A stretch of DNA of 11,347 bases, from UHGV virus genome UHGV-1347074; one strand, written 5' to 3'. The notes beneath the pieces were generated by a model. It worked only from the letters and a program-made list of their open reading frames with translations. It had not been told where the DNA came from and ran no database searches. This DNA is from a virus. Position 1 is the first letter of the stretch. Each line of letters begins with the position of its first letter. Shown here piece after piece: positions 1 to 11,145 of this stretch. The translations under genes and the position numbers were made by a program.

Positions 1-57
1 ATATAACGAGCCCCTCCTAAGGGCTAGTTGCAGGTTCGATTCCTGCAGGGGACACCA
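1..57 (+). tRNA. argW: tRNA-Arg (anticodon CCU), 3' portion only; the 5' end lies upstream of the window
   Basis: Anticodon stem-loop agccc/CTCCTAA/gggct at 9-25 with anticodon CCT at 16-18; T-arm gcagg/TTCGATT/cctgc at 30-46; acceptor 3' strand plus discriminator and CCA ending at 57. Matches from memory the E. coli argW sequence, with one possible difference. Confidence 0.85.
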
Positions 58-217
58 TGAACACCTCCCACAAAGTCCAACTTAGTACGTAACTCATTGA
101 TTTTAATTCATACATCTTATTTTATTCGTCCAGTAAAGTGCCATTATTTCTAATGGAATCTATACATCTTTGCGTATAACATTGTGTATAACTGAGTTCG
201 ATCTTTTTTCTATACAC

Positions 218-1393
218 ATGCTGCTATCTGACATCCAAATAAAAAGAGCAAAACCGAAGGACAAACCCTATACGCTTAACGATGGTATGGGACTATCACT
301 CCTCATCGACACAGCGGGCAGCAAAGGCTGGCGTTTCCGCTATCGCTTTGCAGGTAAGCCAAAGATGATTTCCTTTGGTGTATATGGCGATGTGTCGTTG
401 GCACAGGCACGTACCAAACGTGATGAAGCGCGTTCGATGTTGGCCAAAGGGATCAACCCAAGTGAAGCCAGAAAGGCAGATAAGATTGCTTTGCAGTTCG
501 CACATGAGAACAGCTTTGAGTCTGTGGCCAGAGAATGGCACTCATCGAAAAAAGCCACCTGGTCAGAGGGGTATGCAAAAGAGGTTCTCAATTGTATGGA
601 AAAGGATATTTTTCCTTTTATCGGCCAGCGCCCAATTGAGCAGATTGAACCACTAGAGCTGCTAACCGTCCTGCAAAAAATAGAGAAAAGAGGTGCGCTA
701 GAGCAAACCAGCAAGATCCGCCGCCGTTGTGGTGAAGTGCTTCGTTATGCTGTTGCCACTGGCAGAGCAAAGTATAATTTTGCACCCGATTTAGCTATCG
801 CACTCAACAAACCTAAAACTCAACACTTCCCGTTCCTGACTGAAAGCGAGTTGCCCGAGTTCGTCAATGCTCTGGATAACTATCAGGGCAGTTTAGTCAC
901 CAAATACGCCACGCAGCTGTTGATGCTAACAGGCGTGCGAACAATTGAACTACGTGCAGCGGAATGGGCTGAGTTTGATTTAGATAATGCCTTATGGGAG
1001 ATCCCCAAAGAACGGATGAAGAAACGCCGCCCCCATCTGGTTCCGTTATCTACTCAGGCGATCAGCATCCTGAAAAAGCTGCAAGAAATAACTGGGAATT
1101 ACAGCCTCGTTTTCCCTGGGCGAAACGACGTCAGGAAACCAATGAGCGAAGCCAGTATCAACAAAGTGATAAAGCTGCTTGGCTATCATGGTCGGTTAAC
1201 GGGTCACGGCTTCAGGCATACCATGAGTACTATTTTGCATGAACATGGTTTTGAAAGCGCCTGGATTGAAATGCAGCTTGCGCATGTTGATAAGAACTCT
1301 ATTAGAGGGACTTATAATCATGCGCAGTATTTAGAACCGAGAAGAAAAATGCTAACGTTTTATAGCAACCTTATATATAAATCATATATATGA
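218..1393 (+). CDS. int: Tyrosine site-specific integrase, P4 family (about 392 aa from the first ATG)
   Basis: N-terminus from the ATG at 218 (MLLSDIQIKRAKPKDKPYTLNDGMGLSLLIDTAGSKGWRFRY...) matches the conserved P4-type integrase N-terminal domain. C-terminal catalytic region has HGFRH ... LAHVDKNSIRGTYNHAQYLEPRR (box II and tyrosine). The ORF-track start at 170 is a TTG and was not used. Confidence 0.9.
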   Translation: MLLSDIQIKRAKPKDKPYTLNDGMGLSLLIDTAGSKGWRFRYRFAGKPKMISFGVYGDVSLAQARTKRDEARSMLAKGINPSEARKADKIALQFAHENSFESVAREWHSSKKATWSEGYAKEVLNCMEKDIFPFIGQRPIEQIEPLELLTVLQKIEKRGALEQTSKIRRRCGEVLRYAVATGRAKYNFAPDLAIALNKPKTQHFPFLTESELPEFVNALDNYQGSLVTKYATQLLMLTGVRTIELRAAEWAEFDLDNALWEIPKERMKKRRPHLVPLSTQAISILKKLQEITGNYSLVFPGRNDVRKPMSEASINKVIKLLGYHGRLTGHGFRHTMSTILHEHGFESAWIEMQLAHVDKNSIRGTYNHAQYLEPRRKMLTFYSNLIYKSYI

Positions 1394-2443
1394 TCTTTTT
1401 ATATCCGTTAAAATAGTATCTACATCGGTAAATGTTATGTTTATACAATCAATTAACTCAAATACTTGCTCTTCAATAAGAATAAAATCATTTTTTGGTC
1501 CAGTACTAATTTTTATACCAAGATCCCCAACTTTCTCCAATAAACTAACCTGATGATTTGTGTAAATATATTTTCCTCCGGGCTCTGTTATCTCTCTATT
1601 TGCAGAAAAAACAACATCAGCTATCGCATCAACTTTTAGCTTATACGAAGAAGAAACAGTAACATCACCTTTCTTCGAAAGTGGGAATATTAAACTATAC
1701 CATTTATATATATTCACCTTGTCTGGAGAAATAAACTTTCGTTTGTTTATTTCTGCATTCATATAATCTCTAAACATATTTAGATGTGAAATATGATTTG
1801 TTAGATTACTATTTTTTACGCCAGCTTTATAAGTCAACAACGCTATTCCAATACCACCAACGGTGGTGATCAATGTAATCAACCATGCTATTGACTGAAG
1901 GATAATTGATATGCCATTAAATCTACCAAAAAAGTAAGAAACACACTTATCTGATAGGCAAAATTCTTTCACATACAGTTTTTCATTATAGATCGTAATG
2001 CATAGTATGATGAGACAAGAAATGATACCAAGCATAAAAATAGCAAGGATAGTAATAACCAAGACTTTTAGCTCTTTTTCTTTCCCAAAATCCCCCAAAG
2101 GTAATTTATTAACCAAAGAACTAGTAATTTTATAAATATAAATAATAGTAGTTTTAATGCTCTTTATTAAAGCTGAAGGAGAATTAAGAACAAAGCAATA
2201 CAATGTATTAGCTAAAAATTTAACTCGTATAAAAATAAAGCTTCCTCTAATCTTTACCTTCCTATATTTTCTTTTTAGTTCAAATACTATTTTTCTACCT
2301 TCATCTGTCCCCAGAAGAACTAATCCAATATGTGATACTATATCCCTTAAGCTAACTCCCACCCCAATAAACGCCTTATGAAAAGATGACAAACTGCGTT
2401 TGAGAGATTCATAATTAGATTTTATTTCAGCTAAGCTACCCAT
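1382..2443 (-). CDS. Predicted two-transmembrane-helix membrane protein, candidate retron effector (353 aa)
   Basis: Two long hydrophobic segments (VLVITILAIFMLGIISCLIILCITIY and ISIILQSIAWLITLITTVGGIGIALLTY) separated by a short loop. Its ATG shares one base with the RT stop (TGATG on the - strand), indicating translational coupling. Very AT-rich, like the RT gene. Confidence 0.75.
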   Translation of the reverse strand: MGSLAEIKSNYESLKRSLSSFHKAFIGVGVSLRDIVSHIGLVLLGTDEGRKIVFELKRKYRKVKIRGSFIFIRVKFLANTLYCFVLNSPSALIKSIKTTIIYIYKITSSLVNKLPLGDFGKEKELKVLVITILAIFMLGIISCLIILCITIYNEKLYVKEFCLSDKCVSYFFGRFNGISIILQSIAWLITLITTVGGIGIALLTYKAGVKNSNLTNHISHLNMFRDYMNAEINKRKFISPDKVNIYKWYSLIFPLSKKGDVTVSSSYKLKVDAIADVVFSANREITEPGGKYIYTNHQVSLLEKVGDLGIKISTGPKNDFILIEEQVFELIDCINITFTDVDTILTDIKRSYI

Positions 2444-3639
2444 CAGTATTTAACCTTTTGAAGACGATCTCTGAATCCTTTTTCAATCAATAAAAAACCG
2501 GGAGTTCTTCTTAAAATAATAAGATTATATAGTGTAAGATCATATTTTTTCTTGTAATAATCTTTTTTAGAGTTCCCACCTTTATAGGAGTTCTCTAAAA
2601 ATTTAATAGCCCTATCAATTTTAACAATATCTCTTTTTGCTGCCTTAGGCTGAATATCTTTTAGTCTTAATGATAGCACCTTATATTTATTGTGATTAAG
2701 CCTACCTAATTTGTTCACGCGCCCAACACATCTATTATACTCTATCCTATAGGCTACACTTGTTATTGAGTTATTTTTCTTTGCCAGTTTTTCTAAATTA
2801 TGCACAGACGCTCGAATACGTCCGACCTCATCAGAAGGTAAGCGTGGTTCATTAAATGAGATTCGTAACCCATGTACTTTTAATGATTCAGTTGATATAT
2901 TGTGTACTTGAGTTTTATCTTCATTTATAGGTAAATCTTTACCAGCAAGCATATCTTTAATATGATCTAAAATCTGATTCATATTGTAGTTAACTAATTT
3001 TGATGAAACTGTAATATCATCTACCAGTCTCGTATAGACTAATTTCTTCCTTTCTGCTCTATTTACAATGTCAGATTCAACATCAAAAAGACATAACGAT
3101 GCTATATAACTAGAGGTCAAAGCGCCCTGAACAATAGTGTCGTCATAACAGCATATATCAGTTAAGTACTCTAATGCTTCGCCTTTAAATTTTAAAACCT
3201 TAGAAAATATACTATATACTATATCTCTATGAATATTATCAAAAAAATTTTTGATATCTACTTTAAGTATTGTTTTTGCATTACAGTGCTTACGGGCACA
3301 AGCGATATAATGCCGCTCAATTCCTTTTTTTTTCTCATCTTTATTGGTTGGAACTGAGCCATAAATGTAATCTGGCCATAATATCAGCTCTTTAAAGATC
3401 CTATTGTTTATCCTTTTTTGAATACGCCTTATTAGCTGGTGTGGATCATAAACATCTCTAAGTTCACCATTTATTTTTTTTACTTGCTTTTTCTTGTATC
3501 TTTGGTGGGAAGGCATTGCAATAGCAGTTTTTAAATCTGCTAACGTAATATCCAAGCAAGAACTTAAAGATTGCAAAGATCTGAGAGATTGTGCACCAGG
3601 TTTTTTTATAGGATTACGGGCAACCATAATATCTTCCAT
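2443..3639 (-). CDS. Reverse transcriptase, retron-type (398 aa)
   Basis: RT motifs readable in the translation: ILKVDIKNFFDNI (motif A aspartate), ICCYDDTIVQGALTSSYIASL (motif B), YTRLVDDITVSS (motif C) and a downstream KVHGLRIS at the position of the retron VTG motif. Overall pattern resembles Ec86-type retron RTs from memory. Confidence 0.85.
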   Translation of the reverse strand: MEDIMVARNPIKKPGAQSLRSLQSLSSCLDITLADLKTAIAMPSHQRYKKKQVKKINGELRDVYDPHQLIRRIQKRINNRIFKELILWPDYIYGSVPTNKDEKKKGIERHYIACARKHCNAKTILKVDIKNFFDNIHRDIVYSIFSKVLKFKGEALEYLTDICCYDDTIVQGALTSSYIASLCLFDVESDIVNRAERKKLVYTRLVDDITVSSKLVNYNMNQILDHIKDMLAGKDLPINEDKTQVHNISTESLKVHGLRISFNEPRLPSDEVGRIRASVHNLEKLAKKNNSITSVAYRIEYNRCVGRVNKLGRLNHNKYKVLSLRLKDIQPKAAKRDIVKIDRAIKFLENSYKGGNSKKDYYKKKYDLTLYNLIILRRTPGFLLIEKGFRDRLQKVKY

Positions 3640-3960
3640 TCCATGAAATCAAAATTACATCCGGCCTCCCTCATACTCAAGTGGGCAAAAGAATAGGGTT
3701 GCTTTCGTCAAAAGCCCTTAGCAACTGCCCCTATTCTTTGACCGGACGCAATTGAGGACGGCTACAGCCCCATCGTTGCCGGCCAGGCTTTGTGGGGGTT
3801 CCGTTCCAGCCTATGCTACTGCATAGGCGCTCTCACTTTTCTGTTGCGAGAGCGGAAGCTAAGAAACTATAAACTTTGACTGCCACAGGCAAACGGAACG
3901 TTTGCGCGAAGCAGATATTACCATTGATGTTTCTAGTTTCAAGACTTAACTAGCATTTTT
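3640..3960 (-). ncRNA. Candidate retron non-coding RNA (msr/msd) upstream of the RT; boundaries approximate
   Basis: No ORF of 60 aa or more on either strand. Cluster of stable hairpins: 11-bp stem 3688-3698/3729-3739; 8-bp stem with tetraloop 3809-3816/3821-3828; 7-bp stem 3828-3834/3848-3854; 7-bp stem with GAA triloop 3889-3895/3899-3905. G+C is higher than in the adjacent RT gene. The a1/a2 inverted repeats could not be located. Confidence 0.35.
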
Positions 3961-4299
3961 CACATCACCTACCAAAATTGTAATGGACTGACCAAAAAGG
4001 CACTACACCGCACCCGCCTGCGGTTTTCATATCACTAAAATTTTTCAGTTGTGATTTTTTACAAACGATACCGCCAGCCCGCGCCCGTGCTGGGGATACA
4101 CTGCGAGGCAGGAACTGAAAAGAATGAAAAGAAATTCAGCTTTTTTCAGTTTTACTGTCCGTAGTATCTATGGCCTGAATACGCAACTCTATGATATTAA
4201 ATGGATAATTATTTTTAGGTGTGTGATTTTATGAAGTTTTGGAAACATGAAAAACATAACAAATTGAAAAATAATAATTTTATGTCCGTATAAACTGAA

Positions 4300-4340
4300 A
4301 TCCGGTGTTCAGGTTCCGGGAATGGATCGGCCATTCCCGA
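4300..4340 (-). terminator. Candidate transcription terminator downstream of the Ogr/Delta gene
   Basis: 9-bp perfect hairpin cgggaatgg/ccattcccg (4316-4340) just 3' of the stop at 4349 on the - strand, followed by a moderately U-rich stretch (AUUUCAGUUUAUA). The U-tract is not immediately adjacent, so this is a weak call. Confidence 0.3.
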
Positions 4341-4348
4341 CGCATACT

Positions 4349-4621
4349 TTACCCATTCTTTTGCGCAGCCAGCAGCAACTTTAAAGCCTTTTCCCGTTCC
4401 TCGGGTGGAATTGCATCAATTAGCTCTTTAACCCTCCCCTGCCCGTTCAGCGCGCTTGGACTAACGGAATGGGAGAAAGCAACATTCATCACAAACGAGT
4501 GACCGCACTCCACATTAGAGCAATAGCAGTACACATCGTACAGTTGTGGGTGTTTCCTGTTTGTTTTACCTATCCGCGCTACTGCCTGACATGTGGGGCA
4601 GTACATTCTCATCATCTTCAT
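4349..4621 (-). CDS. Ogr/Delta-family zinc-finger late-gene transcriptional activator (single-domain, about 85-90 aa)
   Basis: C-x2-C-x22-C-x4-C spacing (MYCPTCQ ... YCSNVECGHSF) as in P2 Ogr / P4 Delta. The start is ambiguous among several in-frame ATGs (4621 to 4606); homology favours MYCPTCQ. Confidence 0.85.
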   Translation of the reverse strand: MKMMRMYCPTCQAVARIGKTNRKHPQLYDVYCYCSNVECGHSFVMNVAFSHSVSPSALNGQGRVKELIDAIPPEEREKALKLLLAAQKNG

Positions 4622-4687
4622 CGTTCTGTGCCCTATACTGTTGCCCGCCAGAAGAAGGGATTTGACTCCCTACCTCTTGTTCTGAAC

Positions 4688-4880
4688 GTGTAACACTGGT
4701 AACACGTGTAACGCTATTGATTTAAAAGGATTTAATCTGTTACCAGTTAGCAAAATCAAGAGGTAACGCGTGGTAACACACCATTTTTTGTTACCTCTGT
4801 TACCAGTCAGTATTTTTGACTGGTAACACTGAAGAACCGTATCAGTAGCGGGTGTTACCTCTGTTACCAGTGTTACCTCA
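4688..4880. repeat. Iteron cluster, candidate replication origin (P4 ori/crr-like) for the adjacent primase-helicase
   Basis: At least 12 copies of GGTAAC(A/G)C / its complement TGTTACC in both orientations. An 18-bp direct repeat TGTTACCTCTGTTACCAG occurs at 4789-4806 and 4853-4870. An 11-bp perfect inverted repeat lies at 4799-4809 / 4817-4827. No ORF spans the region. Confidence 0.6.
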
Positions 4881-4903
4881 TATAAATAAGACTCACGCGA
4901 TAA

Positions 4904-7591
4904 TTACTCAGGTTCGGCGCTTCCCAGTACCTGTGTATTGAACTGGTACACACGTTTAAGCCCTATTTCTGGCAGGCGAATGCTGTTTTGCGTCCGGCCA
5001 TCTTCACCGGGTTTCAGCCAGCCCGCGTCCACACACAACCTGGCCACCTTACGCGAATCAAATCCCTTACAGATCTCCTTCCAGCCTGACGGGAGAACGT
5101 AGAACGTCACAACCGGCTCTGTCACGTTGTCTCCTTTATCGACTTTTCTGAATCCCATCATTGAAACAGGCCGGTTCCTGTCGTCATTCCAGTCAGCAAA
5201 CCGACTGAACTGATTACGCGTCATGAAGTCCCGTACCTGTTCAAGTGCCGCTTTATCTTCCTGATTAGCTGTATGGCCCCGGTCAGCCATCCATGCAGCC
5301 AGACAACTTTGAGCGGCACGAAAGGCCTCTCCCTCCGGCCATCCTGTGATGCCCGCTTTTGTGGCCAGCTCCCCGGCCATAGCAACCAGAGCAAAACGGG
5401 TAACAGCCCGGCCAACCTGATTCCCGGCATTTTCCGGCGTCAGCCTCCGGGTGTACTCTTTCAATAAGGCTTTCGCCTGGCTGGTCAGTTCCGGCAGATC
5501 AGCGGTCAGGCAATGCAGCCAGTCGCGGAATGGTGCACCATGATAATGCGCTACATGCTGCTCAAGATGCTCAGCCAGGGTTTTCCCGCTACTGAAGCCA
5601 TGAAGTTCTTCAAACACGCCATACTTGCCCGAATCGCTTGGGATCTGGATCATTCTGACCTCAACCCCGGCATACGTACGTTCCCCGGCGCTTGCCGCAT
5701 GTTCTACCAGTGACAGTTCCCCGGTGGACAGAAACAACAGATTCCAGCGGTTGGTTTCCCTTACAGAACCATCTGTTCTGGCTCTGGCTTTGCCCTGCCC
5801 GTTAGCCAGCATATAAGCGATATTCCCCGCCTCCCTGCCGTCAACCTCCCGGATTTCATCCAGCATCAGCGTGGCATCATTGCGGCGGCTCGCCGTTCCT
5901 TCTAAGGCATTCCCCGTCGCCCGCCACGTATGCCAGAAATCTGTTCCACCACATACTGATGCAGCCACTTTCATCGTCGTGGTTTTGCCGTCCGTCGATT
6001 CCCCTTTGAGGTGATAACCTCCACCGCCGATACCAACCAGTTTCAGAAGGGGGGCAGCAAATGCCAGGCTCACCGCAAAGGCCAGACGGGCATTCTTTAT
6101 GCAGTAACGGCCAAGATTTTCACGCCATTCCTCTGATGTACCGCTGACACGAAAATCACGCCCCTGCACGCTCGATGTTTGTAAGATGACTGACTGGGCT
6201 TCGCGCCCTATCACTTCATCCTGGAGAACGTAAACCCCGCCGTGCCAGCCCGTTTTATTTACACAGGTAACTTTTCTGTCCGGTTTACACAGCGAGATAT
6301 ATTCCATCAGGAATGCTCTGGCCATACCGTTAATGTTGATGTAAGAAAGCCCGTTAACCAGCAGAACGCGGCGCAGTTCTTCCCCGCTGCCACCCAGCAT
6401 CTCCATCGGCATTGCCCATTTACGGCTGTTTCCGTTGGTATCTTCCCATTCCAGCAAACGCCCGTAATTACTCCCATCAGCATCACTGGTGATTGCCGTC
6501 ACCCGCAACGGGCTGCAAATTTTGATATTGCGTATCTCCGTATCACCATCAGACTTATTAACCAGCTTGTCGTACCACAAATATTCTTTTGTCAGCCGGA
6601 ACCCTTCTGGTAAACGGGTCTGCCCTTTGCCATGCAGCGTCATTTCTTCACGAAAGGCATCTCTCGCCCGTTCTTTCCCCACTTCCTGCCGATAGTCATC
6701 CCAGTCAGCCTTATGGCGTACCGGAGGGAGCGTTACCCAGCCATCCACCGCTTTGGCGGCTTTCTCTGCCTGAATACGCCCGGTGTTTTCTTTCCCGTCA
6801 GCCAGATCATTATCTCCGGCCAGAATGATCCGGGTTTCCGGCCAGCGTTTTCGGATCTGCTCCGTCACCTTCAGTAAATTGGTGGCAGCGACAGCCGCCA
6901 CGATCCATCCTTCAGTCAGCAGACTGACGGTAAGCGCCGTGGCAAAACCCTCAGTGATAATCACCTGTTCAGGTGTTTCAGCGGGTATATCGGTCAGGGC
7001 AATGAATGCGCCAGACAGCTGGCTACCGGGCAGCAGACTTTTATCCCCGTCAGGATTGATAAGCTGACCACCGGTAATATTCCCGGAAATATCCGTCAAC
7101 GGCAGCAGTAATGAACCGGAGGAAAATGTTATTCCGGCCAGATTCAAAGGTTGTGACAGCAAGGGAAGTGAATACCCGTGTAAGCCCTTGTTTGTCAGAT
7201 AGACCGGCTCACCATTGCAGGACTGCTGTCTGAGTCTGGTATATCGCTCCGCACCCGCTTCTTTTCCTGTGGCCTTTTTCCTAGCGGGCAAAGCGGGCTT
7301 CTCCTGTATTTCTGGTAATGCAAGCGCCTCAGATACCATCCCGGCGGCTTCTTTTATCTTTCTTCCTGTCACCAGACGAACCAGATCAAGACCATCGCCA
7401 TGACCGCACTGATTACAAAACCACGTCCCACGCCCCGCTTTATCGTCCAGTCGAAAGCGATCTTTGCCACCACAGGCAGGGCAAGCCCCATGATGTCCTG
7501 CGGACGGTACTTTGATACCTAATGCTGACAGGATATAAGGCCAGCGCCCAATCGCAGCCCCGGAAATAGTGGATACAGACAGTGTTTTCAC
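4904..7591 (-). CDS. Alpha-type DNA primase-helicase (895 aa): zinc-binding domain + TOPRIM primase + P-loop helicase
   Basis: N-terminal CPACGGKDRFR ... WFCNQCGHGDG zinc-binding motif; TOPRIM-like ITEGFATA ... ILAGDND; Walker A GESTDGKT. GTG start at 7591 preceded by AGGAGG (7-nt spacer) and overlapping the upstream gene's stop (GTGA). Confidence 0.9.
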   Translation of the reverse strand: MKTLSVSTISGAAIGRWPYILSALGIKVPSAGHHGACPACGGKDRFRLDDKAGRGTWFCNQCGHGDGLDLVRLVTGRKIKEAAGMVSEALALPEIQEKPALPARKKATGKEAGAERYTRLRQQSCNGEPVYLTNKGLHGYSLPLLSQPLNLAGITFSSGSLLLPLTDISGNITGGQLINPDGDKSLLPGSQLSGAFIALTDIPAETPEQVIITEGFATALTVSLLTEGWIVAAVAATNLLKVTEQIRKRWPETRIILAGDNDLADGKENTGRIQAEKAAKAVDGWVTLPPVRHKADWDDYRQEVGKERARDAFREEMTLHGKGQTRLPEGFRLTKEYLWYDKLVNKSDGDTEIRNIKICSPLRVTAITSDADGSNYGRLLEWEDTNGNSRKWAMPMEMLGGSGEELRRVLLVNGLSYININGMARAFLMEYISLCKPDRKVTCVNKTGWHGGVYVLQDEVIGREAQSVILQTSSVQGRDFRVSGTSEEWRENLGRYCIKNARLAFAVSLAFAAPLLKLVGIGGGGYHLKGESTDGKTTTMKVAASVCGGTDFWHTWRATGNALEGTASRRNDATLMLDEIREVDGREAGNIAYMLANGQGKARARTDGSVRETNRWNLLFLSTGELSLVEHAASAGERTYAGVEVRMIQIPSDSGKYGVFEELHGFSSGKTLAEHLEQHVAHYHGAPFRDWLHCLTADLPELTSQAKALLKEYTRRLTPENAGNQVGRAVTRFALVAMAGELATKAGITGWPEGEAFRAAQSCLAAWMADRGHTANQEDKAALEQVRDFMTRNQFSRFADWNDDRNRPVSMMGFRKVDKGDNVTEPVVTFYVLPSGWKEICKGFDSRKVARLCVDAGWLKPGEDGRTQNSIRLPEIGLKRVYQFNTQVLGSAEPE

Positions 7592-7998
7592 AGCAGCACC
7601 TCCTGACCTTCCGGCTTCACAAATTCAAAACCTTCGGGTAGTTCGCCATCAGGTGCACCGAAAATAATATCCCGGTAAACCTCACGCATCTCTGTGACAC
7701 CAAAAACTGACAGGCGAATATTTTCTGACATAAAGCCCGGTTTAAGCATTTTTTCCAGTTTCTCTGCGGCCAGTATGCAACCAGCATCAGCCCCAAACTC
7801 ATTCACCCACGGCATTTCAATATGGTAAATAATATTGCTCACCACTTTTTCGTGGGTGAGTTCTATTCGTTCGCCATCTTCAATATAAACAGGTTCATTA
7901 TGAACACGCTCCATTAAGGAAATGAATGCATCAGCAATGTAGTACCGTAAGACTGCTGTTCGTAAAGCATGCGCCTTTAAATTTTGATTATTATTCAT
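7588..7998 (-). CDS. Hypothetical protein (136 aa from the ATG at 7998), first gene upstream of the primase
   Basis: ATG at 7998 preceded by GGGAGAG; start overlaps the stop of the upstream 78-aa gene (ATGAATAA) and the stop overlaps the primase GTG. The longer TTG-initiated ORF to 8058 was not used. Confidence 0.65.
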   Translation of the reverse strand: MNNNQNLKAHALRTAVLRYYIADAFISLMERVHNEPVYIEDGERIELTHEKVVSNIIYHIEMPWVNEFGADAGCILAAEKLEKMLKPGFMSENIRLSVFGVTEMREVYRDIIFGAPDGELPEGFEFVKPEGQEVLL

Positions 7999-8227
7999 CG
8001 CGCATCTCTCCCTTAATTGTGCTGGTTTCCTTAACAACGCCATCAAGTTGTTCGGCAATACAGGCCACTAAAGCCGCAGCGCCTTCCGCTGAAACAGTTC
8101 TCGCTCCATTCACTGTGGGAACGGACAGGACCTCTGCAAGAAACTCACTGGCCAGTGCCGCCCGTAACAGACGACTCTCACCCAGTTCGCTCAATATGCA
8201 GCCTTGCTTAAAATTCATGGATTTCAT
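7991..8227 (-). CDS. Hypothetical small protein (78 aa)
   Basis: ATG at 8227 preceded by GGAGGTG with a 5-nt spacer; overlaps the upstream gene stop (ATGA) and the downstream gene start. No recognisable motif. Confidence 0.6.
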   Translation of the reverse strand: MKSMNFKQGCILSELGESRLLRAALASEFLAEVLSVPTVNGARTVSAEGAAALVACIAEQLDGVVKETSTIKGEMRDE

Positions 8228-8427
8228 GCAACCACCTCCCCGGCACTTTTCACAGGGATGTGGGCAGCAAAGCTCAGGATAAATTCAGTGGCAAGTTTAA
8301 GGCGTGCAGCATGCTCGCAGTCTGCGATTACACGCACAGGACGTGGACGGGCATCACGGTCTGTACGGCGAACAGCCAGAAAGACAAAGATAAATTCAGG
8401 GTGAGATAAAGCAGGGACTGTAGCCAT
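8224..8427 (-). CDS. Hypothetical small protein (67 aa), first ORF of the replication operon (positionally analogous to P4 kil, function unknown)
   Basis: ATG at 8427 preceded by GGAGG with an 8-nt spacer. The ORF track extends this frame to 8814 (196 aa), but that extension crosses a repeat- and hairpin-rich leader and looks non-coding. Confidence 0.5.
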   Translation of the reverse strand: MATVPALSHPEFIFVFLAVRRTDRDARPRPVRVIADCEHAARLKLATEFILSFAAHIPVKSAGEVVA

Positions 8428-8429
8428 AA

Positions 8430-8725
8430 TGGCAACCTCCGTTAGATAGCGGGTAACGCTACCACCGGAGTTCCTACGCTCATGGGTGGTAGCCCAGACG
8501 GGGGTAGGAATACCGGCTCTAACGGATACCGGCCAGCCCGAAAGCTGCCCCGCCTGGACTACCATAATTCTGATGATGTGGCGTAAAAAATAAAAACATG
8601 CAGTCAGCCACCACACCATAAATTTTAGGTGAGTCAAAGCTACGACACAAAAAAACACGCCTGGCGCGTGTTGTGTCGCCGTTAGATTACACGGGTTCCT
8701 ACGCCCGGCTGCCGATTTTGCGGCA
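8430..8725 (-). ncRNA. Candidate structured leader / immunity RNA region (P4 CI-RNA-like; Rfam C4-type), boundaries approximate
   Basis: Direct repeats CCGTTAGAT...GTTCCTACGC at 8439-8479 and 8679-8708. An internal segment (8499-8516, containing GTAGGAA) is largely complementary to both copies. Strong hairpins at 8458-8466/8485-8493 and 8643-8678. Confidence 0.3.
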
Positions 8726-8733
8726 ACCTTTAA

Positions 8734-8763
8734 ACTATATCCCGCGCATTCCTGGTGAGGCAA
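8734..8763 (-). promoter_or_regulatory. Candidate sigma70 promoter for the leader and replication operon
   Basis: On the - strand, TTGCCT (-35; + strand 8758-8763), an 18-bp spacer, then TATAGT (-10; + strand 8734-8739). Predicted start near 8726, just upstream of the first repeat copy. Confidence 0.3.
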
Positions 8764-8866
8764 GAAATTTATAACCGAAAACTGAACATTGCCTGGATTA
8801 ATTAACGCTGGCATGCTTAAGCCTCTGCTTAAAAATAGTTCTTCATTTTTCCTGATGCTGTAAACG

Positions 8867-8888
8867 AGACCCGCCTCTGAGCGGGTCT
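8867..8888 (-). terminator. Candidate terminator hairpin downstream of the capsid-homolog gene
   Basis: Stem agacccgc/gcgggtct with a 6-nt loop, 14 nt past the stop at 8902. The U-tract on the - strand is weak (CGUUUACAG). Confidence 0.3.
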
Positions 8889-8901
8889 TTCTGTCGCGAA
8901 G

Positions 8902-9906
8902 TCAATCAGCAAACGTCAGGGCGCTCTCATCAACAGCCGCGTACAGTTCAGGTTCACCGAGTGCATAGCCTTCATTGCGCAGGTAGGAATGTACGTATTC
9001 ACTGTTTTCATCATCAAACTCAGCACGAAACCACCGTGTTATCGCCTGAGTGTAAATATGCAGATTATTCAGCGTCGTTACTGCCAGACGCTTACCCGGC
9101 ATAAACGGGGGAATAAACGCAAAGCGGCCAGCAACAGAACTTGTAGCCATCTGTGCAGCATTCACATCAGCCGGGCGGTCTGCGGCATTAAATAACTTCA
9201 GGCGTTGATGTGCTGCCAGCTCTGCCCCAACCAGAACAACCAGACGGGGATCTTCACGAAACTGCTCAGCAATAAGCTCAGTAATCAGATGGTTGGCCAT
9301 CGCATCAATATTTTTCCAGGTGCCAGTCTCTCCCAGCGTGACAGGCTCAGAGATGATTTGCTTTCCGTTCCCGTAGGCTTTCGCCAGTGCATGCCAGCCA
9401 ATATTGACATCCTCGCCTTTTTTATTGATTTCCGGGTTTGTAGTATTTGCAATCGACACACCATTGAAACCGACCCGCAGCATGTCCAGCGCATATGCCT
9501 GGGCAAAAAAGCTCTCAACCGTTTTCTCAAACCCATCCGGCACGCCGGTATGGTAAATATGAGACATATCGGAATAGCTGATCCGGGCGCAGGTATCCGT
9601 CTCTGTCAGAAAGAACTCCGTACCATTGATTGCCATTTTTTTGTGGAAACGGCCACCATCCACACGTCCGGTATGCAGTTCACTGGCACCAATATTGACT
9701 GCATTACCTGACACGGCGTTAACATCACGTAGCGTGATATTTTTAATAAGCCACCCGGATTCCAGAATTGACGTACGCAGTATATTTTCAGTGGGTTCGC
9801 TTAATGCAAAGCGTCTTTTTGATTCCTCCTGATAGTTAGTGCCAGTAACGAATTTATTATGATAACGACGTGCTGCGTCCGGCCTTTCAGTTTTGAAGGC
9901 ATACAT
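8902..9906 (-). CDS. P2 GpN-like major capsid protein homolog (334 aa)
   Basis: Several blocks align by eye with P2 gpN as recalled from memory: GFNGV, DV.(I/V)GW, EDPRLVVLVGAELAA (vs EDPDLVVIVGRQLLA) and TTLNNLHIY (vs TKLENLSIY). ATG at 9906 preceded by GGTGA. Confidence 0.7.
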   Translation of the reverse strand: MYAFKTERPDAARRYHNKFVTGTNYQEESKRRFALSEPTENILRTSILESGWLIKNITLRDVNAVSGNAVNIGASELHTGRVDGGRFHKKMAINGTEFFLTETDTCARISYSDMSHIYHTGVPDGFEKTVESFFAQAYALDMLRVGFNGVSIANTTNPEINKKGEDVNIGWHALAKAYGNGKQIISEPVTLGETGTWKNIDAMANHLITELIAEQFREDPRLVVLVGAELAAHQRLKLFNAADRPADVNAAQMATSSVAGRFAFIPPFMPGKRLAVTTLNNLHIYTQAITRWFRAEFDDENSEYVHSYLRNEGYALGEPELYAAVDESALTFAD

Positions 9907-9929
9907 AGTTTTTTCACCTTTTTTAGTAT

Positions 9930-10790
9930 TTAAGAAAAGATTTTATTTTTGTACTCAGTAACCCGATTGTATTTCATTACATGCTCAACATAATCCCGGT
10001 CACTTACGACTGAACGTAATACATAATTATCTGCTCGATAGTACTCCCTGTAAGCCATAGCTCTTGCCATTCCACCGTTATTTAATACATAACGATCAGT
10101 TGGAACGCTACAACGGCTAATAATTTCATTCACGGAATCAGACAAAGATTTGAGTGCGTCTGTAATAAATTTAATATCACGGACAACGTCACCGTCATTA
10201 AATACAGAAATAAAATCAGCAGGGATCTGGCCGGATTGAGGAAATATGTTCAGTAAACGCTTCTCGACTCCCTTACCAATGTAGTTCACTTCATCGGCCA
10301 GTACGCCCGGTAAAAGCTTGATCGTGCTCAGTCGGCTATGTTGCTCATTCAGCCGGGAAACAGCCAGATGGTAACACCGTTCAGCATCCGCTCGTTCAGC
10401 ATGCCCCGTTTTATTCGTTTTGGCTTCAGCAATGCTACTGACGCCGTTTTTTGAGAATGTGCTTTTCCATGCAACTTCCGCATTTGTCACTTCACGCTGC
10501 CGGAAAGATAACTCTTCCTCTTCCTGACGACACAACTGGGCATAACGGCTTAGGAGCAGGTTGATCTCATTCGCCACAGCTTCCGTATCAGGTACTGTTA
10601 ACCCCGTAAGTGAATACAGCTTTTCACCTTTAGCACGCAGCTTATTCAGTGAATAGATTTCGATAATACGCACAATACAGGCTGTGTCGCTATGAGTTTC
10701 TTTAAATGGTCTTACTTTGTAACTATCTAACACCGACACATGTTCGTTCTTAATTGATGCCAATTTTTTCTTAAAAACATTGTCAACCAT
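9930..10790 (-). CDS. Hypothetical protein (286 aa), immediately upstream of and co-oriented with the capsid homolog
   Basis: ATG at 10790 preceded by GAGGTG; 23-nt gap to the capsid gene. Lower G+C than the flanking capsid and primase genes. No motif recognised; not similar by eye to P2 gpO. Confidence 0.8.
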   Translation of the reverse strand: MVDNVFKKKLASIKNEHVSVLDSYKVRPFKETHSDTACIVRIIEIYSLNKLRAKGEKLYSLTGLTVPDTEAVANEINLLLSRYAQLCRQEEEELSFRQREVTNAEVAWKSTFSKNGVSSIAEAKTNKTGHAERADAERCYHLAVSRLNEQHSRLSTIKLLPGVLADEVNYIGKGVEKRLLNIFPQSGQIPADFISVFNDGDVVRDIKFITDALKSLSDSVNEIISRCSVPTDRYVLNNGGMARAMAYREYYRADNYVLRSVVSDRDYVEHVMKYNRVTEYKNKIFS

Positions 10791-10807
10791 ATATTTGCCA
10801 CCTCAAT

Positions 10808-11035
10808 TTAGGAGTTTAATTTTCTATTGAGAATATTCTTCTCTATCCATTCATTAACTTCATGCTCCACCCATGCAACAGAACGAGAACCGATAGAAAC
10901 TTGGTTCGGAAATTCATCATTCTTTATCTTTAGATAAATTGTTGACTTGGGTAAGCCAGTCAAATTAATCACTTCTGATATTCTCAGAAGTCTATATCTT
11001 TTTTGGGGTGCGTTTTCCCGAGGCAATAAGCTCAT
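10808..11035 (-). CDS. alpA: AlpA-family prophage regulatory protein (HTH; excisionase/transcriptional regulator-like), about 75 aa
   Basis: Pattern RLLRISEVINLTGLPKSTIY ... FP ... G.RSVAWVEHEVNEWI matches the AlpA family. ATG at 11035 preceded by GAAGGA; the ORF-track start at 11050 is a GTG five codons upstream. Confidence 0.8.
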   Translation of the reverse strand: MSLLPRENAPQKRYRLLRISEVINLTGLPKSTIYLKIKNDEFPNQVSIGSRSVAWVEHEVNEWIEKNILNRKLNS

Positions 11036-11145
11036 GGCTATGTCCTTCACATTAGATATTTATACTAAGACTTAATTAGTCTCTATTGGGTGTATATATA
11101 CTTGCACAGAAGAATTAATACGTAAAGAATGACACTTTCAAACTT

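Follow-up and report, generated by a model that had tools for sequence, protein, structure and literature searches.

LVDD and VHG as inherited motifs of a type IV (Ec48/Eco6-family) retron reverse transcriptase in a probable P4-like satellite

The window analysed here is the whole 11,347-nucleotide stretch of virus genome UHGV-1347074, and its features are collected in Table 1. The element appears to be a P4-like satellite prophage at tRNA-Arg, a gene annotated at the same place in Escherichia coli SC477. Its backbone genes encode Ogr/Delta, a P4 alpha-type primase with DUF927, Toprim and Zn-ribbon domains, a DUF5375-like protein, Ash with C4/isrK RNAs, a P2-family capsid protein, a 286-aa unknown protein, and AlpA. 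In place of the psu and sid genes of canonical P4, neither of which was recognised, the window has a P2-family major capsid gene. The cargo slot between the integrase gene and the Ogr/Delta gene is occupied by a retron cassette consisting of a structured non-coding RNA (ncRNA), a reverse transcriptase (RT) and an Ec48-family effector.

Table 1. Positions of the retron cassette, its ncRNA elements and the surrounding satellite genes in the window.
Feature	Position	Strand	Remarks
tRNA-Arg, 3' part	1-54		Rfam tRNA match; adjoins integrase
Tyrosine integrase of P4-like satellite	170..1393	+	Pfam integrase domains
Ec48-family two-transmembrane effector, 353 aa	1382..2443	-	PADLOC 2TM_IV, 2.4e-87 over aa 121-353
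Retron RT, type IV (Ec48/Eco6 family)	2443..3627	-	394 aa from probable start M5
VHG, site of retron VTG triplet (start of region Y / RT7)	2869..2877	-	aligned to Ec86 VTG
LVDD, RT motif C (YXDD box), aa 205-208	3016..3027	-	aligned to Ec86 YADD
CARKH, site of retron NAXXH (region X), aa 114-118	3286..3300	-	aligned to Ec86 NATPH
Retron ncRNA (msr-msd and downstream domain)	3653..3907	-	homologous region directly upstream of RT in >30 type IV loci
ncRNA P1	3753-3740 with 3666-3653	-	
ncRNA P3	3685-3668	-	
ncRNA P2	3739-3688	-	
Pseudoknot 3' strand GCUAAGGG, P2 apical loop	3715..3722	-	pairs with 3858..3865
Predicted msd template, msDNA ~53 nt	3744..3796	-	homology to sequenced Retron-Eco6 RT-DNA
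ncRNA msd hairpin	3807-3756	-	
ncRNA H3	3828-3809	-	
ncRNA H2	3854-3828	-	
Pseudoknot 5' strand UUCUUAGC	3858..3865	-	holds conserved G, candidate branching residue
ncRNA H1	3907-3889	-	
Probable sigma-70 promoter of retron transcript	3915..3942	-	inferred; TTGAAA, 16 nt, TG-TAATAT
Satellite backbone	4349..11050	-	Pfam/Rfam matches

The RT is encoded on the minus strand by an open reading frame listed as 2443..3639 (398 aa); read on the plus strand, these coordinates yield nothing but stops. Translation probably starts at M5 (position 3627) rather than at 3639, because 394 aa is the commonest homologue length, found in the majority of 633 homologues, and GGAAG lies 7 nt 5' of the second ATG. 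The protein matches Pfam RVT_1 (1.7e-23), and among the PADLOC profiles RT_IV scores 604 bits (4e-182), compared with 216 bits for RT_V and 179 bits for RT_VI. A structural model predicted by AF2 has a pLDDT of 92.7, and its top structural matches are all retron RTs; the copy of the PDB that was searched holds no type IV RT structure. The closest sequence matches are likewise retron RTs, and the identification of the protein as a retron RT in a preliminary description of this DNA is upheld.

The same description drew attention to two segments of the protein, YTRLVDDITV (aa 202-211, nt 3007-3036) and KVHGLRIS (aa 254-261, nt 2857-2880), both of which are present in the translation. When the RT is compared with PDB chains, phmmer pairs ‘ytrlvddit’ with ‘ytryaddlt’ of the Ec86 RT and ‘kvhglris’ with ‘kvtglvis’, so LVDD stands at the YADD site and VHG at the VTG site. 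Misalignment by eye had been raised as a possible source of error; the HMMER alignment holds, and no canonical YxDD or VTG was found elsewhere in the whole 398-aa frame. The motif A aspartate is kept (KVDIKNFFD, aa 126-134), as are both catalytic aspartates of motif C, in agreement with the earlier reading, with Leu rather than Tyr or Phe opening the box. Retron RTs are defined by NAXXH (region X), in which His is the most conserved residue, and VTG (region Y), in which it is Gly (PMC7736814). Both of these residues are present, in CARKH and VHG, respectively. CARKH, which the HMMER alignment sets opposite ‘natph’ of Ec86, is a third altered retron signature and was absent from the preliminary description. 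Chance is not at issue for these differences, because the single residues sit at aligned positions that are conserved in the family.

Conservation was counted in 119 RT homologues with 47-99% identity. Leu opens the motif C box in 115 of them and is followed by Val/Asp/Asp in all 119; the His and Gly of VHG and the Cys and His of CAxxH are each found in 119/119. A further 36 more distant type IV or type IV-like representatives are more varied at the first YXDD residue (Leu in 21, Tyr in 13, Phe in 2), with the VHG His kept in 34/36 and the CAxxH Cys in 30/36. These two sets were used for the frequency of Leu since the loci compared for the ncRNA had been picked with the pattern YTRLVDDIT, which makes them unusable for that count. 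Leu in the YXDD box is also common to type V RTs, which retain VTG, and the VHG His to type VI-like RTs and type IX Kva2, both of which retain Tyr or Phe; Leu and His are therefore not one joint character. A neighbour-joining tree was built from the query and 135 clade-3 representatives, with Ec86 as the outgroup (137 RTs in all); on it the query falls within a C-[LYF]-H block, and the residue that opens the YXDD box switches at least 31 times.

The group to which the RT belongs is type IV, defined by a clade 3 RT with a two-transmembrane protein encoded just downstream of it or overlapping it. Judging from the title of Mao et al. (1996), the LVDD of Ec48 has been known since 1996, and a 2019 review records the T-to-H change (VTG to VHG) and the change of NAXXH to CAXXH for RT-Eco6. 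Identical YTRLVDDITV, together with KVHGLRV, occurs in an E. coli RT adjoining an annotated ‘retron Ec48 family effector’, and the same motifs are found in the RTs of E. coli EC93, phage pro147 and E. coli SC477, each of which also adjoins an annotated Ec48-family effector. Identity between the window's RT and the E. coli Ec48-family RTs is about 53-55% (52.7% for SC477), and nothing was found that contradicts type IV membership. This gene did not acquire LVDD, VHG and CAxxH on its own; they are inherited as the signature of the Ec48/Eco6 family. In this respect the observation is an ordinary one: a long-known family hallmark in a recognisable type IV retron.

The effector gene encodes the partner expected of this type. 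NCBIfam retron_Ec48_2TM scores 217 bits (cut-off 65), and two transmembrane helices were judged by eye. The two reading frames overlap where the RT stops and the effector starts (TGATG), and the pair is translationally coupled. An N-terminal extension of ~115 aa, absent from the Ec48 effector, is weakly conserved and varies in length among relatives. Deletion of the transmembrane segment abolishes defence by Ec48; in one study the Eco6 effector alone was not toxic, so the toxin-release step is unsettled even for Ec48.

Upstream of the RT gene lies a structured ncRNA of roughly 265 nt, homologous to the published Eco6 msr-msd. Its fold is supported by covariation: 43 pairs are 94.5% paired, compared with about 40% when one strand is slid against the other, and 34 of them have compensatory changes. 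The sequenced RT-DNA of Eco6 begins GTACGTAATGTCGTCGGCTACGG (PMC10849725, supplement), a sequence also present in the E. coli EC93 locus, which aligns with the window. By this homology the msDNA of the window is predicted to be about 50 nt long, with a 5' start near GGACGCAATTGAGG. An Rfam scan of the window returned no retron RNA family, and the matches were to tRNA, C4, isrK and c4-a1b1 only. The match of the putative promoter in a consensus scan is not significant alone; close relatives retain a -35/-10 pair, and every lineage has a TAnnnT hexamer 6-9 nt upstream of H1. This conserved -10-like box would put the transcript start at H1, at about 3907-3908.

The architecture around the template start is unusual. 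Throughout the lineages compared, P1 belongs to a covarying three-way junction (P1-P2-P3) and encloses the template start within its helix, and no type IV locus compared showed an a1/a2 repeat lying flush with that start. The one a1/a2-like helix is a long-range pseudoknot in the canonical a1/a2 order, with its 3' strand ~26 nt beyond the start of the Eco6 RT-DNA; compensatory changes are seen at 8/8 of its pairs, and it is 82% paired compared with 28-58% when slid. Candidates for the branch point are G3859, the G of CUUAGC, and G3907, with which H1 begins. The junction and pseudoknot are hard to square with canonical a1/a2 priming. P1 itself was considered as a canonical a1/a2 with the msd in P2/P3, and rejected because the sequenced Eco6 RT-DNA lies upstream of P1 and takes in its 5' strand. 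Another candidate duplex joins an a1 that immediately precedes the conserved G to an a2 located at the start codon of the RT. With background fractions of 0.01-0.17 and 0.09, this pairing is strong in Pseudomonas loci alone and marginal in the window; other loci lack it. Placing a1 upstream of H1, following census ncRNA boundaries, with the P2 5' strand as partner gave z-scores around 0 and no signal. A permuted arrangement that puts the priming G in the 3' strand of P1 was also rejected, since its partner column (A in 12 loci, G in 11) is not conserved. The flank upstream of H1 also resembles a conserved -10 box.

Among known systems the closest is Retron-Eco6 (Ec48; Mao et al. 1996/1997, Millman et al. 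2020), which has the same order of ncRNA, RT and overlapping two-transmembrane effector, an RT of the same length (about 394 aa) with YTRLVDDITV, VHG and CAxxH identical to those of the window, and a homologous ncRNA, msd hairpin included. It differs in having an effector of 235 aa, compared with 353 aa, and msDNA of 48 nt, compared with the ~53 nt predicted here. The EC93 and pro147 retrons are carried by P2-like prophages rather than by a P4-like satellite. Two sister groups in clade 3 each share part of the motif pattern. Type V RTs (Sen1/Se72) resemble the window's RT in the Leu of L[LI]DD and in their ~395-aa length, but keep NAXXH and VTG and have a cold-shock-domain partner; Gam is a trigger common to Eco6 and Sen1. 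Type VI-like RTs share the His, in VHG or VHN, but keep Tyr or Phe, are about 320 aa long, and have HTH and small-protein partners. The RT of Retron-Eco1 (Ec86) has the same fold as the model of the window's RT (TM 0.80, rmsd 3.3 A over ~316 columns), with the same order of fingers, palm and thumb and with motifs that align residue for residue. Unlike the window's RT, it has YADD, VTG and NAXXH, and at 320 aa it is without the three additional helices that the model shows at the C terminus (about aa 331-390). A nucleoside deoxyribosyltransferase-like protein serves as the Ec86 effector.

Taken as a whole, the locus is best explained, with a probability of roughly 0.92, as a type IV retron whose RT has inherited its motifs and which serves as a three-part anti-phage cassette in a P4-like satellite, acting by an Ec48-like mechanism. 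The upstream ncRNA, the RT and the translationally coupled two-transmembrane effector would work together as they do in Ec48. The RT would copy the msd hairpin into msDNA of ~50 nt, primed from a guanosine 2'-OH, and the RT-msDNA complex would silence the membrane effector while RecBCD is intact. Inhibitors of RecBCD, such as lambda Gam and T7 gp5.9, would then free the effector, leading to membrane damage and aborted infection. Ec48, with LVDD, makes msDNA and defends, its defence is abolished by D216A/D217A, it guards RecBCD, and Gam triggers Eco6. By analogy, synthesis of msDNA by the cassette in the window may be expected, and the allele may behave like Ec48.

The preliminary description had suggested a divergent subclade or altered handling of template or primer. 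The first part of this stands in so far as the variants mark a phylogenetic group, which is nevertheless the well-populated and recognised type IV of clade 3, with motif changes that are already published. A previously unrecognised subclade defined by LVDD and VHG, with different primer or template handling, is quite unlikely: the Leu and His depart from 14 of the 16 validated retrons, but they are unlinked in other types, 13 of the 36 type IV representatives have Tyr, and the first YXDD residue switches repeatedly on the tree. In favour of altered handling, the Tyr of YADD touches primer-terminal bases and VTG adjoins the priming guanosine in retron complexes, solved or predicted, and the ncRNA of type IV is atypical at its template start. 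In Eco2 the Tyr hydrogen-bonds these bases, a contact that Leu would be expected to remove. Against this, the msDNA of Ec48 is an ordinary-looking hairpin, and the first YXDD residue appears to be a tolerated, labile position because the Ec48 enzyme works and Leu, Tyr and Phe interchange inside type IV. The His and Cys are better candidates than Leu for contacts specific to the type IV ncRNA, because they are fixed in type IV, and this difference between a labile position across clade 3 and two fixed ones can guide the choice of substitutions to test. That these two residues co-evolved with the non-canonical ncRNA architecture is a tentative idea, somewhat less improbable than a new subclade and still unlikely. 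If true, priming or its gating in type IV retrons would depart from the textbook a1/a2 model; the RNA might, for example, alternate between a closed P1/P2 state and one competent for priming. Such a switch would echo the regulated synthesis of msDNA recently reported for type VI retrons, a sister group of type IV. The junction and pseudoknot are directly testable on the well-studied Eco6.

Loss of the YXDD Tyr is unusual among RTs generally and might be read as a sign of a decaying or catalytically impaired enzyme in a degenerate cassette. This is very improbable for a frame that is intact and full length, that retains its catalytic aspartates and that shares its residues with hundreds of homologues in many genera. 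Furthermore, the ncRNA helices keep their pairing through compensatory changes, the RT and effector genes are translationally coupled, and Ec48 is active with the same motifs. Least probable of all is a non-retron defence RT of the Abi-like or DRT/UG kinds, although P2/P4 hotspots do carry such enzymes and in an E. coli P2 prophage the locus of an Ec48-type retron also holds an unrelated RT of 514 aa next to it. The window's RT scores 40 bits with Drt3a (cut-off 200) and 26 bits with Drt2 (cut-off 390), is closest in sequence and fold to retron RTs, and has as neighbours an ncRNA of retron type and an effector of the Ec48 family.

A type IV retron in this setting can be compared with that of a nearly identical satellite. 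The E. coli SC477 element (NZ_LR778152.1) is 97.7% identical to the window over 3990-10348 and 95.8% over 1-1308, and has the same tRNA-Arg/yfdC/mlaA/fadL insertion site and the same slot between int and ogr/delta; its cargo is a different type IV allele, with the 52.7%-identical RT noted above and an effector of 235 aa. When the cassette was compared by megablast with the complete genomes of E. coli, the backbone segment 3990-4348 alone matched, so a near-identical cassette is absent from those genomes. Retrons 81-82% identical to the window's occur in Citrobacter freundii and Enterobacter kobei, and the same satellite with the same slot is found in E. coli and Citrobacter. The retron cassette has been exchanged between conserved satellite flanks, and the locus is a clean case of such exchange in a defence hotspot, with type IV alleles ~53% identical between flanks 96-98% identical. 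The retronphage phiR73 offers a parallel, in that a P4-like satellite integrated at a tRNA gene likewise carries a retron, Ec73, as cargo; that retron is of type II, and the tRNA target is a different one.

The leucine at motif C and the histidine at the VTG position of the reverse transcriptase (RT), both reported in the preliminary description, are borne out, since residues were assigned to the signature positions by an HMM-based phmmer alignment against all PDB chains and not by eye. In this alignment 'ytrlvddit' pairs with 'ytryaddlt' of Ec86 (Retron-Eco1, the reference retron RT) and 'kvhglris' pairs with 'kvtglvis', and the RT protein contains no canonical YxDD or VTG at other sites. A third signature, which had gone unremarked, is also altered: 'acarkhcnak' pairs with the 'nnatphigan' region of Ec86, placing CARKH where NAXXH is expected, and this type of change is a published Ec48 trait. 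The plus-strand translation of the same interval is full of stops. The true RT start is probably M5 at 3627 and not the listed 3639, because most homologues have 394 aa and a Shine-Dalgarno-like GGAAG lies 7 nt upstream of this second ATG.

Features of the window discussed in the text
Feature	Coordinates	Strand	Remarks
Effector ORF	1382..2443	minus	start within RT stop codon (TGATG)
RT ORF	2443..3639	minus	398 aa
YTRLVDDITV	RT aa 202-211	minus	
KVHGLRIS	RT aa 254-261	minus	
CARKH	3286-3300	minus	at NAXXH position
P1	3753-3740 with 3666-3653	minus	
P2	3739-3688	minus	
P3	3685-3668	minus	loop CUUGAGUAUG conserved
Predicted msd template	3796-3744	minus	by alignment to Eco6
Ash-family ORF	8224-8814		
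P2-family major capsid protein	8902-9906	minus	full length; Pfam 9e-67, PHROG 7e-85
286-aa protein adjoining capsid gene	9930-10790	minus	without family match

The RT matches Pfam RVT_1, and its best defence-system profile in PADLOC is the type IV retron RT (4e-182, 604 bits), followed by type V (216 bits) and type VI (179 bits); DRT profiles score far under their cut-offs. An AlphaFold2 model built from 28 homologues is confident (pLDDT 92.7) and its top structural matches are all retron RTs, with Ec86 first (TM 0.80, 3.3 Å). Compared with Ec86 (320 aa), which lacks them, the modelled protein is predicted to have three additional C-terminal helices; no type IV RT structure was found among the PDB chains searched by sequence and by fold. 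Type IV was defined by Mestre et al. as clade 3 RTs accompanied by a two-transmembrane membrane protein just downstream or overlapping, with Ec48 as the example. The effector encoded by the ORF downstream matches PADLOC 2TM_IV (2e-87) and the NCBIfam 'retron Ec48 family effector membrane protein' (217 bits; cut-off 65). It carries an N-terminal extension of ∼115 aa (aa 1-115, about 2100-2443, minus strand) running from the RT stop codon, in which a hydrophobic stretch could form a third transmembrane helix. A weakly similar extension is present in the Enterobacter kobei effector (346 aa) and a shorter one, with stops upstream, in that of Citrobacter, whereas Ec48-type effectors of E. coli, Serratia, and Pectobacterium (234-247 aa) have none.

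LVDD and VHG are not unusual within the family of this RT. Across 119 homologues with 47-99% identity, from Enterobacterales, Pseudomonas, Burkholderia, Vibrio, Aeromonas, and others, the first residue of the YXDD box is Leu in 115, Tyr in three, and Phe in one; the remaining Val-Asp-Asp, the His and Gly of VHG, and the Cys of CAxxH are found in all 119. The RTs of E. coli EC93, phage pro147, and E. coli SC477 read YTRLVDDITV, [KV]VHGLR[VI], and CA..H, and each adjoins an annotated 'retron Ec48 family effector membrane protein'. The literature agrees: LVDD was already described for Ec48 in 1996, and a 2019 review describes both the T-to-H change in VTG and substitution of the Asn of NAXXH in RT-Eco6 (Ec48).

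Wider relatives were sought among 1.84 billion cluster representatives, the three signature positions were tabulated, and ten representatives were typed with PADLOC. The 36 closest have Cys at NAXXH in 30, His at VTG in 34, and Leu (21), Tyr (13), or Phe (2) at YXDD, and RT_IV was the top profile for each of the five that were typed. A block of 24, for which three typed examples were all RT_V best, combines NAxxH, L[LI]DD, and VTG; ∼75 shorter, RT_VI/V-like RTs combine [DN]AxxH, [YF]xDD, and VH[GN]; and the type IX Kva2 RT in the PDB has YADD together with VHG. At least 31 changes at the first YXDD residue are required on a neighbour-joining tree that comprises the query and 135 representatives and is rooted with Ec86 (137 RTs in all). 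From these tabulated positions and tree changes, Leu is a labile state common to types IV and V. His is found in type IV and type VI-like retrons as well as in some others, and neither residue identifies type IV unless combined with Cys. Types V, VI-like, and IX thus split the two residues, which do not mark one clade as a linked innovation. The PADLOC assignment, the Ec48-family motifs, and the literature all equate the proposed 'divergent subclade' with the known type IV family; the observation itself stands and its interpretation holds in part. LVDD and VHG are a known signature of Ec48-type retron RTs, and the locus is a new member of that family.

Altered template or primer handling had also been suggested. 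Leu occurs at the first YXDD position in telomerase RTs too, and in Tetrahymena telomerase a Leu-to-Tyr change reportedly increased processivity, which serves as a lead only. The Tyr of YADD forms hydrogen bonds with primer-terminal bases in the Eco2 structure, so Leu would take away one contact. We read Leu as a tolerated variant, because Ec48, also LVDD, still makes msDNA; its defence requires both aspartates. In a type I-A retron, VTG is close to the guanosine used for priming and makes contact with the backbone of the nucleic acid. Family-specific contacts are more likely for His and Cys, since these are fixed in the family.

The architecture of the retron ncRNA is the sole part that might repay further work. 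An Rfam scan gave no match for a retron ncRNA; 3640-3910 aligns with the region upstream of E. coli Ec48-family RTs and of closer relatives. A profile built from six loci recovers a full-length homologue immediately 5' of the RT gene at over 30 type IV loci, with matches outside the building set in Rahnella (1e-63), Kosakonia (6e-44), Pseudomonas (2e-10), Marinobacter, and Aliivibrio. Over 25 distinct sequences, the 43 pairs of its six helices are 94.5% paired, against ∼40% when partners are slid, and 34 show compensatory changes. A retron census supplement (PMC10849725) gives the Retron-Eco6 ncRNA together with the sequenced RT-DNA, whose first bases are GTACGTAATGTCGTCGGCTACGG. Because GTACGTAATGTCGTCGGCTACGG recurs in the EC93 locus, the msd is placed on the variable hairpin P0/H4 and the first nucleotides of helix P1, and the predicted msDNA would be ∼53 nt and fold as a hairpin. 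The RNA downstream of the msd (3653-3753, minus strand) forms a three-way junction, P1-P2-P3, with strong covariation, and the predicted start of the template is buried in it.

A canonical duplex of the flanking repeats a1 and a2 flush with the template start was searched for and not found. There is instead a pseudoknot, in which UUCUUAGC (3865-3858, with a conserved G before H2) pairs with GCUAAGGG (3722-3715), the 5' half of the P2 apical loop. Differing lineages make it with differing sequences: AAUUGUCAGU with GCUGACAAUU in EC93 and, in three further loci, AUUUGUUAGC with GCUAACAAAU (L040), UUUGCUAAAG with CUUUAGCAAA (L012), and AAAACAUUUGG with CCAAAUGUUUU (L037). All eight pairs show compensatory changes, and pairing amounts to 82%, compared with 28-58% for slid partners. 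With the two pseudoknot strands as candidate a1 and a2, the order of elements (a1, G, H2, H3, msd, a2) is canonical; however, this a2 is separated from the point where the Eco6 RT-DNA begins by ∼26 nt, which P1/P2 take up. Every lineage has a TAnnnT hexamer 6-9 nt before H1; a predicted promoter, TTGAAA-16-TGTAATAT, is found there in the window, and the native transcript probably begins at H1. Between the Ogr/Delta gene and this promoter is a terminator-like hairpin followed by a T-run (3998-4015, minus strand), which fits a retron transcribed independently.

The retron is cargo of a P4-like satellite. An Rfam scan identifies window 1-54 as the 3' two-thirds of a tRNA gene, likely the attachment site, and tRNA-Arg is annotated at the equivalent place in E. 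coli SC477. A tyrosine integrase and the retron cassette follow; beyond are Ogr/Delta, a P4 alpha-type primase, a DUF5375-like protein, and Ash with C4/isrK RNAs, and the window ends with the P2-family major capsid protein, the 286-aa protein, and AlpA. The capsid and 286-aa genes also occur in E. coli and Citrobacter satellite copies, and no psu or sid homologue was recognised in the window. Within or beside the Ash-family ORF, 8482-8740 (minus strand) is the P4 CI-type immunity RNA region, with C4 antisense RNA (81 bits), isrK (72 bits), and a c4-a1b1 target at 43.7 bits, under its gathering score of 46.7.

E. coli SC477 has the same satellite at the same site (97.7% identity over 3990-10348, 95.8% over 1-1308) with a different type IV retron, its RT 52.7% identical in amino acids and its effector 235 aa. 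Comparison with this locus (L060, NZ_LR778152.1) shows cassette exchange in a satellite hotspot, at window 1309-3989. The left breakpoint of the exchanged cargo lies inside the 3' end of the integrase gene. The same satellite in Citrobacter freundii encodes an RT with 81% identity. The Enterobacter kobei RT is 82% identical and lies in the same chromosomal neighbourhood, marked by Form_Nir_trans/MlaA/Toluene_X genes; one locus has an integrase, and no satellite backbone genes were seen upstream of the RT on the long contig. EC93 and phage pro147 carry the Ec48-type retron in a P2 prophage hotspot, adjoining a second, unrelated RT. This is a divergently oriented 514-aa 'RNA-directed DNA polymerase' (1555-3099 of the EC93 locus, L001; 825-2369 of the pro147 locus, L002), and the P2-type hotspot thus holds two RT-based systems together.
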